Shown: positions 34,577-43,315 of the stretch, one piece after another
How positions within the stretch are numbered: the stretch's first letter is position 1
Layout: the number at the start of each line of letters is the position of its first letter
DNA from: an uncultured Planctomycetaceae bacterium
GTDB taxonomy: Bacteria; Planctomycetota; Planctomycetia; Planctomycetales; Planctomycetaceae
Assembly (NCBI GenBank): GCA_963815195.1
Contig: CAWFGE010000007.1
Span: 256,001 to 320,000, forward strand
Length of the DNA stretch: 64,000 nt
Reading direction: 5' to 3'
The notes under the pieces: generated by a model
What the model was told of the DNA's origin: nothing
Seen by the model: the letters and a program-made list of their open reading frames with translations, nothing else
Databases searched by the model: none
Translations under genes and position numbers: made by a program

Positions 34577-36417
34577 TCCGCTTCCGATTCCGGCGGAGGA
34601 TCGATCAGGCTGATCAACACCTGGCCGGGTTCCAGGGTGGGCGGGTTGTCGGCTTCGCAGACTTTGATGCGCTTCGTCTCCGTGGAATACACGAAGAGCG
34701 GAATCGCCGAGTCGCCGTACATGTTGCGGTAATTCTCCGCGGTGAAGTCCTTGGTGATCGGGGTCTTCTTCACGATCGCCCCCGCCGCATGCCGATCCGC
34801 CAGGTCATGCCAGGTCGCGTGTTTGTCGAACAGGAAGCGGGCCGTCAGATGCCCGGCCACGGGTTTTTCGTGCCCGCCCTGCTTTGGTTCGGGCACGAGT
34901 TGAAACTGCTTCGCGCTGTCGAAGGCCTCGGCGAGTTGGATCGTCGCGAGCGAATTGACCTGATCGTTGGCCGTCATCGCGAGCAGATAGCCGATGCCCC
35001 GCAAGTCGAGTTGGTCGAGGATGTGTTCCGTGGTGATTTGCTCGTTGACGGCCCGCAAACCTTGCATGCGGGCATTGGCGGCTTTGCGGTAGTTGGAATC
35101 GACCATCAGCACGGGGATGTCGAGCGATTGAAGCATCAAAGCCAGCTCGACCGTGAAGGCGTCGGCTCCCACGAAGAGCACGCCCGCGGGGTCCGGTTCC
35201 CCGATCCCCAGCCGGCGGGCGACGAACCGGGCCGTCAATCCGTAAACCGAAACCGTGCCCACGATCACCAGGAACACGAGCGGGCTTAAGATCCTGGCCT
35301 CCTTCGCCAAAACCGCCAGCGACTTGGAGCTTTCGCTGGCGTGCGCGAGGTGAAAGATTTCGAGCGTGAACACCGAAGACACCGCCGCCGCCACGATCCC
35401 GCGCGGAGCGAGCCACGAAAGAAACAGCCGTTCTTTCCAGTTCAATTCCGATCCCAAGGTGGACAGCAACACCGCCGCCGGGCGGACCACGAGAATCAAC
35501 AGCAGCACGAACGCCGCCGCCGGCCAGCCGAGTTCCCAAAGCTGCTGCGGGCTGATCCGCGCGGAGAGCACCACGAACAGCACCGAGATCAACAGCACCC
35601 GCAGGGTCTCTTTGAAGGCGATCACGTGTTGAATCGGCGTCGAGTTTTGATTGGCGAGGAGGATGCCGAACATCGTCACCGTGACCAACCCGGATTCCGG
35701 CTGAATGCGGTTCGACAAGGCAAACGTGACGAACACCATCGCCAGGATCAAAGCGTTGTCGAGATAATCGGGAATCCAATGGCGTTTGAAGACTTCCACG
35801 ATCACGCGGGCCGCCAGCCAGCCCGCGACGAGTCCTACGATCCCGGTGCGGAGGATGCTCACGATCGTTTCCCAAGTCGCGGCGCGGATTTCGTGCGCGA
35901 ACACCGCATTGAGCACCAGCACCGCCAGCACCGCGCCGACGGGATCGATGACAATGCCTTCCCACTTCGCGACCGCGGCGACCCGTCCCGTCGGCCGCAC
36001 ATGCCTGAGGAGCGGACCGATCACCGTCGGCCCGGTGACGACCAGAATCGAGCCGATGATGTTCGCCATAAACCAGCTCACGCCCAAGACGTAATGGGCG
36101 AGCACCGCCGAGAGGCCCCACGTCAAGAGGCCTCCGATCAAGACCAGCTGCAACAGCGCTCGCCCGCACTCCGCCATCTCGCGGAACTTGAGCGTGAGTC
36201 CCCCTTCAAACAGAATCACCGCCACCGACAGCGACACGACCGAAAACAACAGCGTCTCGTCCAGGCTTTCAAAATCGCCGGGACGCCGGTACTCCCCCAA
36301 GGCAAACCCCGCCGCGAGCAACACCAGGATCGCGGGCAGATGCAGCCGCCACGCCAGCCACTGGGCCGCGATGCCCACGCCGACGACCAGGCTCAAATAC
36401 AAAGTGACCGACTCCAA
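34573..36417 (-). CDS. Cation:proton antiporter (CPA1/NhaP type) with C-terminal NAD-binding-like domain
   Basis: [44 protein letters not shown] and [10 protein letters not shown] motifs. Confidence 0.9.
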
Positions 36418-36703
36418 GGCGGCTCATCCTTTGGCGGAAAAGGGAGGATGTGTGTTTCACAAAAAGGAGGCAGGAACTTGGGTGCCACGCCCTTCGCTGC
36501 GCTCAGGGACGTGCCACCCGATCCATTTGAAAATACGGCGAAAGATCATCCCCCGGCCCTGTCGAAATCAGCCGGGCGTCCGTAGGATAACGTGTTGGAG
36601 CCGATTGGGAGAGCCAGGTTTCGCGCCTCGTCATTTTTTCGCCGAACGCCTCCATCGGCTAAAAAATCATCGAGCCACTCAAACGACTGGGCTGAGCGAA
36701 GTG

Positions 36704-37492
36704 ATGCAACACGAACTTGCCAGCGGGCAACAGGTGCGGCGGGCGTGCCGTCGCGGTGAATGGACCGGACCGACGGCGGGGCTGGCGGCGGGGTTTGCGC
36801 AGGCGAACCTCGTGGTCCTGCCGCGGGATCGGGCGTATGATTTTCTGGTGTTCTGCCAGCGGAATCCCAAACCCTGCCCGCTGCTCGAGGTCACCGAGCC
36901 CGGCGATCCCTGCCCCGCGAAATTCGCCCCGGATGCGGACCTGCGGACCGACCTTCCACGATACCGCGTCTGGCGAAATGGCGAACTAGAGAACGAGCCG
37001 ACGGACATCGCCGGCCTCTGGCGGGACGATTTTGTGAGCTTTCTGATTGGCTGCTCCTTCACGTTCGAGTCGGCCCTCTTGCGGGCGGGCGTTCCGGTGC
37101 GGCACATCGAAGAGAACCTCAACGTGCCGATGTATCGCACGAACATCGCCTGCCGATCCGCGGGAATTTTCGAGGGGCCGATGGTGGTTTCGATGCGTCC
37201 CTTGTCCCCGGCCAATGCAATCAAAGCGGTAGAGATCACCTCGCGGTATCCGATGGTGCACGGCGCCCCGGTGCACTGGGGGACTCCGGAAGAGATCGGC
37301 ATCGAAGATCTTTCGCGGCCCGACTTCGGCGACGCGGTGCCGCTGAAGGCCGGCGAAATCCCGGTGTTCTGGGCCTGCGGCGTCACACCTCAAGCCGCGC
37401 TCATGGCCGCCAAACTTCCGCTCGCCATCACCCACGCCCCCGGCTCGATGTTCGTCACGGATGTCAAGGATGAAACCTTGGCCGCCGGCTGA
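36704..37492 (+). CDS. Putative hydro-lyase (DUF1445/D-glutamate cyclase family)
   Basis: [57 protein letters not shown] and ITHAPG. Confidence 0.9.
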
Positions 37493-37606
37493 ATCCGCAA
37501 GGCAATTTAACGCAAAGGCGCAAAGACCAGACGCAAAGGGCCGCAAAGAAAAACTCTGGCCTCGCATTCATTTTCTGAAGTTGCTCCTCATTCTTCTCTT
37601 GGATTG

Positions 37607-37970
37607 CTTTGTGTCCTCTGCGTCTTCCCTTTGCGTCTTTGCGTTAAAAAGTTTTCGGGGGCAACGAATCGGAAAATTTTTGCGCGGGGGCATCCGAGGA
37701 ATTGGCGCGACCCTGCCGACGGCATCAACCAAGGCAGTCAAACGTTCGGTGCTCGCAATCGGGATTGGTGCTTTCTCTTGATGGGCGACGGCTCCGTCCG
37801 CAAGTTCAATTCGTCCATGGGCCGCAAGCTGCTCAAAGCCCTCAGCACTCCGAATGGGCACGACGACGTGCCCGAATTCTGAAAGGTGTTTTCTTTGCGG
37901 CCCTTTGCGTCTTCCTCGCACTTTGCGTTAAAAAGTTTTCGGGGGCGACATATTTGAAAATTTTTACGCG
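37607..37970. repeat. Two imperfect direct repeats of about 80 bp (37607-37686, 37893-37970) built on a CTTTGCGT motif; inverted copy of the motif at 37506-37547
   Basis: Identical 26-bp core CTTTGCGTTAAAAAGTTTTCGGGGGC at 37637 and 37921. Confidence 0.8.
37687..37882 (+). pseudogene. Orphan 3' fragment of a DUF1559-like gene
   Basis: Translates as GHPRNWRDPADGINQGSQTFG...FLLMGDGSVRKF...LLKALSTPNG...EF*, resembling a DUF1559 C-terminus; no N-terminal part present. Confidence 0.6.
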
Positions 37971-38109: not shown

Positions 38110-38757
38110 ATGCGAGACGTAGATAAGCAAGTTCCCACGGGTCCGCCGGAAACCGGGACGCCGCCTGCGGGCGGGTTCAGTCGCCGCGAGTTCCTGAAAG
38201 GCTCCAGTGCCGCCGCCGTGGCCACGGCGCTCGCGACCGCCGGAGCCGAAGCCCAGGCCCAGGACACCAAACCCAACGTGGCCCCGGCCAAGCCGCAAAA
38301 GATCACGCTCAATGTCAACGGCAAAGATCACACCGTGACCGTCGAGCCGCGGACGCTGCTCCTCACCGTGCTGCGGAACCACTTGAACCTCACGGGCTGC
38401 AAAGACATCGACGAGCGCGACGCCGCCGGGGCCGACACGGTCTTGATTGACGGCAAACCGGTGCTCGCCGGCAGTCGGCTGGCGATCGAATGCCAAGGCA
38501 AGAAGATCAAAACCGTCGAATCGCTCAGAAACGGCGAGATGGTCGACGAAGTCATCGCCTGCTTCGTCAAGCACGATGCGATGCAGTGCGGCATGTGCAC
38601 GCCGGGCTTCGTGATGGCCACGCGGGCGTTCCTCGACAAAAACCCGCACGCCACGCTCAAAGAAATTCAAAGCGGCCTGGGCGGCAATATTTGCCGCTGC
38701 GGGACCTACGACGGCATCACCAAATGCGCCCTCGAACTGGCGAAAGGAGGTGCGTAA
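38110..38757 (+). CDS. Xanthine-oxidase-family small Fe-S subunit (PaoA/YagT-like) with Tat signal; first [2Fe-2S] motif lost
   Basis: SRREFLK Tat motif, EPRTLLL-VLR, QCGMCTPG and NICRCGTY. The N-terminal C-X4-C-X2-C-X11-C is replaced by D/A/D/G. Confidence 0.9.
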   Translation: MRDVDKQVPTGPPETGTPPAGGFSRREFLKGSSAAAVATALATAGAEAQAQDTKPNVAPAKPQKITLNVNGKDHTVTVEPRTLLLTVLRNHLNLTGCKDIDERDAAGADTVLIDGKPVLAGSRLAIECQGKKIKTVESLRNGEMVDEVIACFVKHDAMQCGMCTPGFVMATRAFLDKNPHATLKEIQSGLGGNICRCGTYDGITKCALELAKGGA

Positions 38758-40903
38758 TGGCGCGTGAAGTTGCTTGGAAACCGATGGGTGATAATGTCCT
38801 CATCGGCACCGAAGTTTCGCGGCTGGACGGCGTCGATAAAGCCTCCGGCTATGCGAAATACAGTGCCGACATCAACACGCCCGGCACCTTGTACGCTCTC
38901 GTCCTGACTTGCCCCCACGGTCATGCGACGGTGAAGAGTTTGGACCTTTCGGCGCGAAGAAAAGCCCCGGCGTGAAGGCGACCCACATCTTTAACGATAC
39001 CGGGGCGGAACTGTTTTGGGATGGGGCGCTCGTCGCCGCCGTCGCCGCGGAGACGCTCGAACAAGCCCAGGACGCCATTCGGGCCATCAAGGTCGAATAC
39101 GAAGTCCTCGAACATTTCGTGGATGAAGACGACCTCCGCGGCGCGGAAGTCGCCAAGCGGACGAAAGAACCGCAGGAATCCAAGAAAGGCGATGTGGAGG
39201 CGGCTTTGAAAAAAGCCAAGGTCGTCCACAAAGGCCATTATGGGATTCACACCATCACCCACTGCTGCATGGAGCCGCACGGCTCGCATTGCGAGTGGAG
39301 CGAGGACGGCAACGGTGTCCTCACCGCGCATCTTTCGACGCAAAACGTGTCGGGGACCGGCGGGCAGTACGCCGGGCCTTTGGGCGTGGATCAATCGAAG
39401 GTCACGATCATCTGCAACTACATCGGCGGCGGGTTTGGTTCCAAATTCGCCGTGGATGAGTGGGGCGTGGCCTGCGCCAAAATGGCCAAAGAAGCCGGCC
39501 GACCGGTGCGGTTCCTGCTCGACCGGGCGACCGAGTTGAAATCGGCCGGGCAACGGCCTTCGGGCTTTGCCGATGTCACCATCGCCGCCGACGCCAACGG
39601 CCGGATCACGGCGTGGGACAGCGTGCACTGGGGCTCGAACGGCATCAAAGGCGGCACCGTCGCGGTGAGCCAGTATCCCTACGTGTTCGATTTCGAGAAC
39701 CGCAACCGCAAGGCCATCGGCATCGAAACCAACACCGGCGATTCCCGCGCCTGGCGGGCACCGAACCATCCGCAGCTTTGTGCGATGACCTGCACGGTGA
39801 TTGACGATCTGGCCGCGAAGCTCGAAATGGACAGCTACGACGTGTTCATGAAGAACCTCGACCAGACTCCGAAAGCCGATGTCTATAAGGCCGAGATGGA
39901 GATCGCCGCCAAACTCATCGACTGGAAGAAGAACTGGCATCCCCACGGGAAAGGCGAGAGCAAAGGGGGGATGAAGCGCGGACTCGGAATGGCCCTCCAT
40001 ACCTGGGGCGGCCGGGCTCATGCCGGGAGTTGCACCGTGAAGGTCAATCCCGACGGCACGGTGGAATCCACCTCCGGCAGCCAGGACATCGGCACGGGCA
40101 CGCGGACGGTCATCGCCATCGTGCTCGCCGAGACCTTCGGCATTCCCGTGGAGATGGTGAAAGTCAATATCGGCTCCAGCAAGTATCCCCGCTCCGGTCC
40201 GTCCGGCGGGAGCACCACCGTGGGCGGCGTGAGCGGCCCCAACCGCCGAGCCGGCTTGGAAGCCCTGTGGAAGATCTTCGATCTCGTCGCCAAGAAGTAC
40301 AACGTCAATGCCGACGACCTCAAAGCCGACGGCGGAAAGATTCTCGCCGGCAGCAAAGTGGTGTGCACTTGGAAAGACGCCGCCCGGCTCACCGGGCCGA
40401 TGGGCCTTGAAGTCCAAGGCCAGGGACCGAAGAACGACGGCCTCACGTCCGACGGCGTCGGCGGCGTGCAGATGGCCGACGTTTCGGTGGACACCGAGAC
40501 CGGCAAGATCAAGATCAACAAGCTCGTGGCCGTCCAGGACTGCGGGCTGATCATCGACCTCAAAACCGCCGAGAGCCAGGTGCTGGGCGCGTTAATCATG
40601 GGCATTGCCTATGCGATTACCGAAGAACGCATCATGGACAAGAAGACGGGCCGGTTCATCAATGCCGACCTCGAAAATTACAAGCTGCCTCGCCTAGGCG
40701 ACATCGGCGAACTCGTCGTCGAGATGTACCAGCCCGAAAGCGAGTACAAACGCGGCGTGATCGGGCTGGGCGAACCGCCCGTGATTTCCCCCGGCGCGGC
40801 GATTTCCAACGCGGTGGCCAACGCCCTCGGCGTGCGGGTTCCCGTGCTTCCCATGACCCCCAAACGCGTCCTCGATGCGCTGGAGAAAGGAGGTAACTCA
40901 TGA
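38757..40903 (+). CDS. Xanthine-oxidase-family molybdopterin-binding large subunit (PaoC/YagR-like), frameshift near 38952
   Basis: TAATG coupling; RLDG-DKASG-AKY, H-MEPH, STQ, IGGGFGSK, WRAP-HPQ, QDIGTG, SGGS, DCG-I, Y-LP and GLGEPP. Confidence 0.9.
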
Positions 40904-41901
40904 GACCCTTTGAGTATGCCAGTCCGCGGACCGAAGCAGGAAGCCGTGGAACTTCTAAACGACCACCAGGCCAACACCGCCGTCCTTGCCGGCGGGACGG
41001 ACCTCATCAACTTGATGAAACAAGACCTGCTCGCCCCCGCGCGGGTCGTGGACATCAAGAACATCGACAGCCTGAAAACCGTCTCCGCCGACGGCGACGG
41101 CGTTCTCGTCGGCTCGTTGGTGACCTTGGAGGATATGAAAGACAACCCGCTGCTCGCCGACTATCGGTCGCTGATCGATGTCGTGGACGGCGTGAAGTCG
41201 ATTCAGATCCAATCCATGGGCACCGTGGGCGGCGATTTGTGCCATCTGCCCAATTGCTGGTATTTCCGCAATGGATACGGGCTGTTGGGACAAGACAACG
41301 GCGAGTCGCTCGTGGCTGCCGGGGACAATCGCTACCACGCGATCTTCGGTAACTCTGGCCCCGCCAAGTTTGTCTCCGCCACCCGCTTCGGGCCGGCGCT
41401 GATTGCTTGGGCGCAAAAGTGCGGATCGCGGGACCGAAGCCCGATCAGGTCACGCTGCTGCCTTTGGAATACTTCTACGTCACTCCCAAGACGCAAAAGC
41501 AAGGCATCACGGTGCTCTCGCCCGGCCAGATGATTACCCATCTCTGGCTGCCGCCCGCGAAAGCCGTTCGCTCGGCGACCTATGAAGTGCTGGAACTCGA
41601 AGGTCTGGACTGGCCGCTGGCGGCGGCTTCCGCGTGTCTGGAAGTGGACGGCGGGATCGTCCGTGGCGGGCGGATTGTGCTCGGCCACGTCGCCCCCACG
41701 CCTTGGATTTCCGAAGCGGCGATCCGGGCGATCCAGGGCAGGACCATCTCCGAAGAAACCGCCGAACAGGCGGGCGAAGCGGCGGTCGCCAACGCGACGC
41801 CGCTCAAAGACAACCGTTACAAAGTCCGCCTGGCCCGAACCGCGGTCAAACGCGCGGTGCTCAAGGCGGCCCTACAGTTGAACTTGGAAGGAGGTGCCTA
41901 A
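40900..41901 (+). CDS. Xanthine-oxidase-family FAD-binding-type subunit (PaoB/YagS-like), frameshifts near 40935 and 41410
   Basis: ATGA coupling; MRPFEYA, LAGGTDL, VVDIK, GTVGG, CWYFR, NRYHAIFG, VLGHVAPTPW and PL-DN-YKV. Confidence 0.88.
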
Positions 41902-41904
41902 GCC

Positions 41905-42135
41905 ATGTCCGAGAAGAATCCCGAACTCGAAATCCTCGATACCACCGGCGAGCGCTGCCGGCATCTCTTGTCTAAGGGCCTGTATATCAACTGGGGCCTG
42001 CCGCCCGGTGAAGAAGCCGCGGGCGATGGCAACTTCTGGTGCGCCCACACGCAAACCATCTTCGGCCCCGACAAACAAATCTGCGACAAAGACCCCTGCT
42101 GCAACCCGACCCGCAGCTGCTACGAAGCCCCCTAA
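41905..42135 (+). CDS. Small six-Cys protein, last gene of the Mo-enzyme operon
   Basis: GGAGG RBS inside the previous gene end; 76 aa with CRH, FWC-HTQ-FGPD, C, CC and SCY; host-like codon use. Confidence 0.75.
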   Translation: MSEKNPELEILDTTGERCRHLLSKGLYINWGLPPGEEAAGDGNFWCAHTQTIFGPDKQICDKDPCCNPTRSCYEAP

Positions 42136-42406
42136 AGGCGAGCAGACCAACCTGCGGTCGGTGCCCGCGTCAGCCCCCTGGTTACTCTAAACGTTTTTTC
42201 AGCGAGCTTTTTTAAGTCTGCAAATTACCGGCCAGCTTACACTGGCCGCTCGCCTTCAACAAAATGCCCGTCGGAGTTTCGGCCCCGGCGGGCGTTTTGG
42301 CGTTTTGGATTTCGCAGCGAACGTTCCTTGACGGTTCCGCGTGCGGTGAACAGAATGAAAGAGTGTAGAGCCCGTCATTCCCATCTTCAAACTGGAGGAT
42401 TTTCCG

Positions 42407-43075
42407 ATGCGTTTTGGACTTTTGGCCGCGGCCGCTCTGAGTTTGGGTCTGTTGACCAATGCCCGCGCCGCCACCATTGAGGGCGAATATCTCGAAGCCC
42501 GCACCTGCAATGTTTACACCGGCCCCTGCTTTGCCAACGGCGAAATGGGCATGGCCGGCAAAGAAGCCATCCTCGCCTGGAAAGTCGATCAGGGCAGTTG
42601 GAACGAAACCGCCTTAGACGGCCTGGGCGTCGCGCTCGTCGTCACCGCCGACAGCACGCTGGGCGACGACGGCGTGTTCGGCATGGAAACGCCCGAAACC
42701 AAGTCCGTGATCCTCGTCGATAAAAACGCCAGCGAAAGCCAAAAGAAAGCCCTCGTGGCCTTCGTGAAAGACTCCGCCAAGAAGCTGGCGAAGAACGTGG
42801 TTCGCATCGAAGAAGTCCCCTTTACTTTGGAAAACGACCATGTGGACGCCAAGGGCATGTTCGCGGCGGGCAACATCGCCAAGATCGAAACCCGCAAGCT
42901 CAAAAAAGGCGACTGCGTGTGCAGCAACGAAATCGTGTATTATCAACCGCTGACCAAAGTCGAAAACTTCCACCCCGCGTTTTCGCTGTCGAACAAATTC
43001 CAGGGCAAAGGCCTCCAAAACAACTGGTCCGCCGGCGGCGAACGCAGCGCCTTCCTCGCCACGTTCCGCCGCTGA
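42407..43075 (+). CDS. Secreted DUF1326-like putative metal-binding protein
   Basis: GGAGG RBS and signal peptide; GEYLEARTC-VYTGPC, W-V-G-LDGL, VD-A-QKKAL and YY-PL motifs. Confidence 0.7.
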   Translation: MRFGLLAAAALSLGLLTNARAATIEGEYLEARTCNVYTGPCFANGEMGMAGKEAILAWKVDQGSWNETALDGLGVALVVTADSTLGDDGVFGMETPETKSVILVDKNASESQKKALVAFVKDSAKKLAKNVVRIEEVPFTLENDHVDAKGMFAAGNIAKIETRKLKKGDCVCSNEIVYYQPLTKVENFHPAFSLSNKFQGKGLQNNWSAGGERSAFLATFRR

Positions 43076-43101: not shown

Positions 43102-43137
43102 AAAACGGAACCTCTTTTGCGGGGGGTTCCGTTTTTT
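43102..43137 (+). terminator. Intrinsic terminator
   Basis: AAAACGGAACCTC...GGGGTTCCGTTTTTT hairpin with T-tract. Confidence 0.7.
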
Positions 43138-43315
43138 GTTTAAGCATTCGAACGCAAAAAGCACAGCGCGGCTGAGCCGCGCTGTGTCCTTTGCGTTCGA
43201 ATCTCAAGAGCGGTCCACGGACTGGTGCGGGGATTGTTCCCTGGGTATGGTATGAAGACGATCCAATGGGATCCCGCTTTCCCGATTTCATACCACGACT
43301 GGAGAGGAACACATC

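Follow-up and report, generated by a model that had tools for sequence, protein, structure and literature searches.

Xanthine oxidase family members have been described to pass electrons from their molybdenum (Mo) centre through two [2Fe-2S] clusters to flavin adenine dinucleotide (FAD), with the centres about 12 Å apart (PMC12316806). The two clusters are described as a constant of the family, FAD being the known exception, and the ferredoxin-type motif of the second cluster, Cx4Cx2Cx11C, as general for it (PMC3958847, PMC12316806). PaoABC of E. coli (YagTSR; 5G5G/5G5H) is a heterotrimer with a twin-arginine translocation (Tat) leader on its Fe-S subunit, and its electron acceptor is given as unidentified in PMC3958847. 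Here, we describe a related operon at positions 38110-43075 of a stretch of 64,000 nucleotides from an uncultured Planctomycetaceae bacterium (the window; positions 256001-320000 of contig C7 in a genome of 8.9 Mb and 25 contigs). Its small Fe-S subunit S, large molybdenum cofactor (Moco) subunit L and flavoprotein M resemble PaoA/YagT, PaoC/YagR and PaoB/YagS, but the cysteines that would bind the distal [2Fe-2S] cluster are missing from S, and they appear to have been lost repeatedly within the family Planctomycetaceae.

PaoC is the best match of L in both the PDB (E = 1e-60) and NCBIfam, and the window shares with PaoABC the Tat leader on the Fe-S subunit, the catalytic Glu, the STQ-equivalent Gln, the RAP motif and the PaoB-type insert in M. 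Unlike PaoABC, it has no distal [2Fe-2S] ligands, lacks three of the four [4Fe-4S] Cys and follows the gene order S-L-M; the operon contains no xdhC, but extra genes for a four-Cys protein and a DUF1326 protein. The scores stayed far below the NCBIfam equivalog cut-offs for PaoA (133 vs 322 bits for S) and PaoC (306 vs 1180 bits for a 645-amino acid (aa) part of L). The Methylobacillus aldehyde oxidase (5Y6Q), which is the best PDB match of M (E = 1e-31), the second for S and the third for L, keeps the Cys of the distal cluster and those insert Cys that are missing from the window. S itself is most similar to the aerobic CO dehydrogenases (CutS/CutM, CoxS/CoxM; 1FFU, 1N5W), which like the window have the GTIGGD and GDW flavin-site motifs and work without a [4Fe-4S] insert, but differ from it in having both [2Fe-2S] clusters and no Tat signal; the window's L scored far below the CoxL models. 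The Desulfovibrio aldehyde oxidoreductase and deflavo xanthine and aldehyde oxidases are reported to turn over without FAD, with nitrite reduced at Mo (PMC12316806; PMC6129670). They have no flavin and keep both [2Fe-2S] clusters, the reverse of what we see here. MhyADH of Alicycliphilus denitrificans, likened to the window by description rather than by sequence, is another three-subunit member with a non-redox hydratase step, which differs from the window by its intact cluster motifs (PMC3044224). By homology, the window's enzyme is a member of the xanthine oxidase family, predicted to lack the canonical cofactor set. In the literature searched, which covered few of the subscription papers, neither a natural family member without the distal cluster nor this planctomycete enzyme was found described; the recurrent loss, its convergent Asp, the sequence of events and the contrast in XdhC described below come from the present analysis.

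Loss of the distal cluster ligands in the small subunit

The operon comprises five genes on the forward strand, in the order S, L, M, a 76-aa Cys protein and a DUF1326 protein. S (38110-38757, 215 aa; assigned by Pfam and by alignment to PDB entries and homologues) starts with a predicted twin-arginine signal peptide (38110-38259; SRREFLK ... AQA, PF10518 and TIGR01409 above cut-off, cleavage site inferred). It overlaps L (38757-40903) by TAATG, and L overlaps M (40900-41901) by ATGA, which bears out the claim of an earlier note on this DNA that three PaoABC/YagTSR-like genes are translationally coupled. L, assigned by Pfam, PDB and motifs, contains the hammerhead and MoCoBD_1/2 domains (PF01315, PF02738, PF20256), and M, assigned by Pfam and PDB, contains FAD_binding_5 and CO_deh_flav_C.

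S was matched by Fer2_2 and TAT_signal in Pfam, without a match to Fer2. In alignments with CutS, 5Y6Q and QorS, the former distal ligand positions (38410-38472) are occupied by D101, A106, D109 and G121, and S does not contain the family-general motif Cx4Cx2Cx11C. The proximal ligands C160, C163, C195 and C197 (38587-38700) are all present. The earlier note was right on both counts, the replacement of the N-terminal [2Fe-2S] Cys and the retention of a CGxC...CRC cluster motif. Among the 120 best homologues, which are 63-100% identical and include the window's own protein, 117 have no Cys at any of the four distal positions, and its absence is therefore not due to chance; the proximal ligands and the twin Arg were each kept in 119. 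The same genome encodes other xanthine-oxidase-family members (C12, ~301-303 kb; C15, ~56-58 kb; C23, ~543-546 kb), and both of their small subunits have canonical distal motifs.

S was matched at E ≤ 1e-42 in 173 of the 398 family genomes. Operons were fetched from a hand-picked, non-random spread of genera, and 12 duplicate loci were removed ahead of all counts. The resulting 87 family loci comprised 51 that have lost the distal ligands, 35 intact ones and an ambiguous one, L129 (G428), which was labelled lost in the comparisons of M rates and neighbouring genes and ambiguous in the counts of motifs and four-Cys genes. Its shifted four-Cys motif (C-x3-C-x3-C) may be an intermediate state. 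The proximal motif CxxC...CxC was found in 51/51 lost and 35/35 intact loci. Outside the family, all 27 of the best loci from the phylum were intact; nine further loci from the outgroup order included seven with an intact motif and two unmatched by the search pattern. The lost-type motif was also found in a cultured carrier (P0020), named by its source Thalassoroseus pseudoceratinae.

The third ligand is Asp in 50/51 lost loci, encoded by GAC/GAT in place of TGC/TGT and thus two base changes away from Cys, and the fourth is Gly, Ser or Asn in all 51. Asp, Glu or Gln occupies the first position in 40 and Asp the second in 29 of the 51. A separate basal clade (L130, L160-L168) has Ser at all four. 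The replacement loops are unlike between lineages despite their common Asp at the third ligand. We infer that this Asp would replace the cluster as acceptor of hydrogen bonds from the loop backbone.

Lost and intact loci interleave on the family tree. Broken or truncated L or M rows (12 named) were dropped ahead of tree building; the L+M tree contained 55 hand-picked rows and the L tree 90 (L129 omitted), and each of them required at least nine state changes. On the L tree, and assuming no regain, lost clades are split by intact ones in at least seven places with a Shimodaira-Hasegawa-like approximate likelihood ratio (SH-aLRT) of ≥95. The groups counted are the basal Ser clade, the L051 clade, L120/L121/L140, L090/L101 with or without L094/L146, the window's group, the L073/L081 group and L078/L083/L089/L126. 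A single origin was rejected by approximately unbiased (AU) tests both on L+M (difference in log likelihood 886, p-AU = 2e-8, 5000 resamples) and on S with the trait columns removed (p-AU = 0.025, seven changes; L099 omitted here and in the comparison of M rates). The distal ligands appear to have been lost at least seven separate times within the Planctomycetaceae.

A decaying pseudo-operon or an artefact of poor assembly could mimic such a loss, and the window indeed contains three frameshifts, near 38950 in L and near 40934 and 41405 in M. All three are one-base indels relative to the unbroken sister locus L070 (92-97% identity across most of the operon). Short-read contigs of runs X1 and X2 contain one more G behind 38950, and that of X1 is otherwise identical over 461 nt; this frameshift is an assembly error. 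The contigs spanned 38950 only, and the shifts near 40934 and 41405 are probably assembly errors as well. The large subunit on C15 of the same genome is likewise split across frames. S, L and M are unbroken in 71 of the 78 family loci that hold all three. The ratio of nonsynonymous to synonymous substitution rates (dN/dS; Nei-Gojobori, 15 lost-type pairs, 13 for the Cys gene, and 12 intact pairs) was 0.03-0.22 for S, 0.04-0.27 for L, 0.05-0.23 for M and 0.02-0.27 for the Cys gene in lost-type pairs; intact pairs fell within the same range, and the window and L070 gave 0.06-0.28 per gene or gene part. Purifying selection, unbroken loci and the Cys loss shared by 117/120 homologues speak against pseudogenization, and we regard decay or artefact as extremely improbable. 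The earlier note had named close orthologs with all Cys together with real frameshifts as the outcome that would speak for decay; nearly all of the best homologues share the loss and the contigs restore the first frame, which leaves an enzyme that is conserved, its Mo site intact and its distal cluster missing.

The molybdenum site and the flavoprotein

The Moco and catalytic motifs that had been reported for L (STQ, GGGFGSK, WRAP, QDIGTG, SGGS and GLGEPP) were all found in the window, and the catalytic Glu and the Moco-binding motifs align to PaoC. All six motifs are present in 42/42 full-length lost loci and in 29/32 intact loci. Among 80 of the genomes that gave the fetched loci, XdhC (for background on XdhC and PaoD, see PMC2997495) was found in 49/50 lost-type and 27/30 intact-type genomes, and a MoaA domain in all 80; the window's genome contains a MoaA domain, XdhC and a MocA-like gene. 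Five basal-clade genomes have XdhC adjacent to the operon, where it follows the Cys gene directly on the opposite strand (G466:C90, G464:C146, G467:C138, G468:C6, G463:C2). The evidence from the Moco genes is indirect, since the window's genome carries other xanthine-oxidase-family members. By its motifs, the Mo site of the lost-type loci looks maintained.

The opposite combination was observed at the other three of the 32 intact loci, L128, L134 and L136 (G732, G729, G727), where both [2Fe-2S] motifs are intact and the Mo-site motifs are altered (STE, GSGFGSKS, SEGS, LSEPP). These loci have no neighbouring Cys gene, their genomes contain no XdhC or a weak match only, and their dN/dS is ~0.08-0.12. 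They possibly encode a Mo-free pseudoenzyme.

Of the four [4Fe-4S] Cys of PaoB, M retains C119 and lacks the other three, as the earlier note had indicated in stating that most of them are replaced. Its further suggestion of a coordinated loss in two subunits did not hold. The PaoB-type insert contains two to three further Cys in 13/13 distant outgroup M proteins, but none in 8/8 near-outgroup M proteins from operons with both [2Fe-2S] motifs and none in 75/79 family M proteins, whatever the state of S. Since the insert Cys were already gone in a near outgroup with both [2Fe-2S] motifs, the [4Fe-4S] cluster was lost first and separately, and we reject a coordinated loss of the two cluster types.

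A dismantled flavoprotein, as part of the dismantled electron-transfer chain claimed earlier, is not supported either. The AGGTDL loop of M is intact and GTVGGD matches GTIGGD of CutM; the differences, described earlier as replaced parts of the FAD motif, consist of R162 in place of the HPSD Asp and of substitutions at three conserved Arg (R104Q, R231L, R233L/M), all of them common to the Planctomycetaceae copies with or without the distal cluster. In the main family clade, intact and lost loci together, the new residues C114 and R162 are present in 78/78 rows, R104 is mostly replaced by Gln, and R231 and R233 by hydrophobic residues. In the basal Ser clade, M shares R162 and Q104 but lacks C114. 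C114 and C119 form a C-x4-C pair (41239-41256) beside the predicted flavin site, which is absent from the outgroup and the basal clade and may form a disulfide of structural or redox function. Purifying selection acts on M, whose rate relative to L was 1.21 after the loss compared to 1.16 without it (p = 0.59; 28 vs 25 branches, which are not independent). The kept core motifs and this selection speak against a dismantled FAD site. The sole sequence sign suggesting relaxation in M is a change of the first Gly of the FAD pyrophosphate loop in 11/44 lost-labelled rows (L051 clade), compared to 0/34 intact rows.

Possible routes for the electrons

We favour a reading in which this conserved, predicted Tat-exported enzyme would run both half-reactions at Mo, not sending electrons to FAD, and give it a probability of roughly 0.45. 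The earlier note had also proposed a mechanism without electron export by the normal wire, which is the leading reading here as well. Mo(VI) would hydroxylate a PaoC-type substrate, probably an aldehyde, a class suggested solely by the likeness to PaoC, and a co-substrate entering the same funnel would re-oxidize Mo(IV); it could be a small redox mediator or else an oxo-donor such as nitrite, an N-oxide or an S-oxide. The proximal cluster would act as a one-electron buffer and the flavoprotein would be kept mainly for assembly and export. The relay could have become dispensable stepwise, by loss of the [4Fe-4S] cluster, then remodelling of the flavin site and then at least seven separate losses of the distal cluster, with the Asp at the third ligand standing in for the negative charge of the cluster and keeping the domain folded. 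We prefer such a turnover because one that has no need of the wire is the simplest account of repeated loss next to an unchanged, chaperone-supported Mo site. Deflavo xanthine oxidase and aldehyde oxidase have been described to oxidize a substrate and then to reduce nitrite at one and the same Mo (PMC6129670; PMC10420851). In a more specific version, the enzyme would be a self-contained Mo oxo-transferase of the periplasm, in which one substrate is oxidized and a second one deoxygenated in a coupled manner at a single Mo, with a wire shed stepwise in parallel lineages, an Asp mimic and the four-Cys protein as fourth component; taken as a whole, this picture is possible but rather doubtful.

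Several points weigh against turnover at Mo as the reason for the loss. The neighbourhood comparison revealed no gene for a substrate or co-substrate that consistently accompanies the operon. All four distal Cys are kept in 35/35 intact loci, and the cluster is therefore still selected for in those lineages. XdhC could serve other members of the family, since the window's genome has further ones. The flavin motifs xxG[TM]D (42/42 lost loci) and GT..GD.C (41/42) fit a flavin in use as well as a structural one, and the relative rate of M is not raised after the loss. Regarding the number of losses, S of L090/L101/L094/L146 can form one clade (p-AU = 0.55), and the losses in L090/L101 and L094/L146 may go back to one event in S that spread by recombination. 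The AU p-value on S alone is modest, the trees come from quick LG+G4 searches with a poorly resolved backbone, and the tested group was defined after a first tree had been viewed.

Alternatively, the enzyme could be an ordinary aldehyde-type oxidoreductase, in which electrons tunnel from the proximal [2Fe-2S] cluster directly to FAD, slowly but adequately, and the remodelled flavin site (C114/C119, R162) passes them on. The conserved FAD motifs and the equal relative rate of M with or without the distal cluster agree with this. We take the gap left by the distal cluster to be roughly 20 Å, by analogy with xanthine oxidase structures. A Moser-Dutton estimate for 18-22 Å gave 0.05-600 per second, and the upper part of this range overlaps typical turnover, but most parameter sets at 20-22 Å stayed below 10 per second. 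In addition, the pyrophosphate-loop Gly has changed in one long-lost clade, and throughout the main family clade conserved Arg close to the flavin have disappeared. We consider direct tunnelling unlikely, but worth serious attention.

The acidic residues at the old site (D101, D109 and often a third Asp) could also bind another redox metal, or a metal centre of the four-Cys protein could take the electrons of the proximal cluster. Such a replacement would explain the Asp at the third, the D/E/Q at the first and the frequent Asp at the second position, as well as the Cys gene beside 41/41 lost and 24/33 intact loci (those with enough flank), its four Cys being nearly invariant. It is improbable given that the window has Ala and Gly at two of the ligand positions and the basal clade only Ser, and that the Cys gene predates the loss and its product has no signal peptide; the absences of the gene trace to about three events, too few for a test. 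We doubt even more that the enzyme is a non-redox catalyst (hydratase or hydrolase) in which Mo-OH acts as Lewis acid or nucleophilic water donor at unchanged oxidation state. This would account for a dispensable relay, and MhyADH is described to hydrate enones without an electron acceptor, but it keeps both cluster motifs (PMC3044224). The invariant proximal cluster (51/51) and the kept XdhC rather fit redox cycling of a sulfido-Mo, although a role in assembly could explain both.

Accessory genes and surroundings of the operon

M is followed by the genes for the 76-aa six-Cys protein (41905-42135) and the DUF1326 protein (42407-43075; PF07040, signal-peptide-like N-terminus), in agreement with the earlier note. 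Four of the six Cys (C18, C46, C65, C72) are conserved and two are variable. The Cys protein has no signal peptide and no match in Pfam or NCBIfam; it belongs to an unnamed family of 901 clusters (E ≤ 0.001), the best 150 of which are 63-130 aa long with each of the four Cys in 146-149. It is a likely metal-binding protein. It was matched in 139 of the 398 family genomes, nearly always once. The gene also flanks fully intact outgroup operons (L064, L065, L069), by which it has long accompanied the operon and did not come in as a substitute when the cluster was lost, contrary to the earlier idea of a new partner. As for the proposed check on whether Cys loss and Cys gene co-occur under selection, the gene lies beside 41/41 lost but also 24/33 intact loci with enough flank, and its dN/dS was low in the pairs compared. 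Since it is found at all lost loci and only part of the intact ones, a supporting role is still allowed.

A model of the Cys protein (predicted local distance difference test (pLDDT) 81.5) remained without a hit in Foldseek (E ≤ 0.001) and in VIA (Z ≥ 2, 48,161 chains), which does not make it a new fold. A weak search among 8000 candidates revealed no fused longer forms. Prediction of a complex of S (residues 60-215), M and FAD with the Cys protein as partner, L left out, scored 0.00; it gave no verdict and is no part of the evidence. Residues covarying with the absence of the gene single out no subunit and come mostly from a single clade. Intact-type operons without the gene are L105, L112, L113, L141-L143 (genus code g360) and L114; no g360 genome contains a match to the Cys protein, and the g360 flavoprotein has Gln for W238 and Thr for Q104.

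DUF1326 was found beside 17/42 lost-labelled loci (one being the ambiguous L129), 6/33 intact loci and the Acidobacteriota operons L017 and L018, and is a frequent but optional neighbour. Its model is beta-rich (pLDDT 89.9), and the outgroup loci L052, L053, L055, L058 and L059 have an extended form of 395-498 aa. A terminator-like hairpin with a T run follows at 43111-43132 (forward strand); this evidence from a pattern scan is weak because the scan gave 15 sites compared to 9.2 expected. A promoter scan stayed at chance level (one found, 1.2 expected).

Clustering of the neighbourhoods of the operon loci revealed no consistent substrate pathway, and an Atlas search found hypothetical-protein and DUF1326 clusters only. 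An upstream open reading frame of the D-glutamate cyclase family (36188-37492) has homologues in the vicinity of 17 loci, and 13 loci have a MOSC-domain gene nearby, which may reflect no more than synteny. Another protein outside the Pfam families, again with a signal-peptide-like N-terminus (L103:2719-3345, reverse strand), lies near 18 loci, 16 of them lost-type, and not in the window. The operon is bordered at 37506-37970 and 43146-43202 by short direct and inverted repeats (a 50-nt pair and arms of 24-34 nt) resembling repetitive extragenic palindromes (REP) or miniature inverted-repeat transposable elements (MITE), and a short frame between them resembles what we take to be a DUF1559 C-terminal remnant. 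At the distant loci L019 and L060, small and large subunits are fused in one reading frame.

The distal ligands of a cluster held to be constant have been dropped many times in an operon type that is widespread in the family, and the present work defines a so far unnamed four-Cys protein family. Pairs of intact and lost sisters (L104 vs L090; L106 vs L094; L123 or L114 vs L120) would make it possible to test directly the contributions of the distal cluster and the flavin, and the ability of a carboxylate to replace a cluster structurally.

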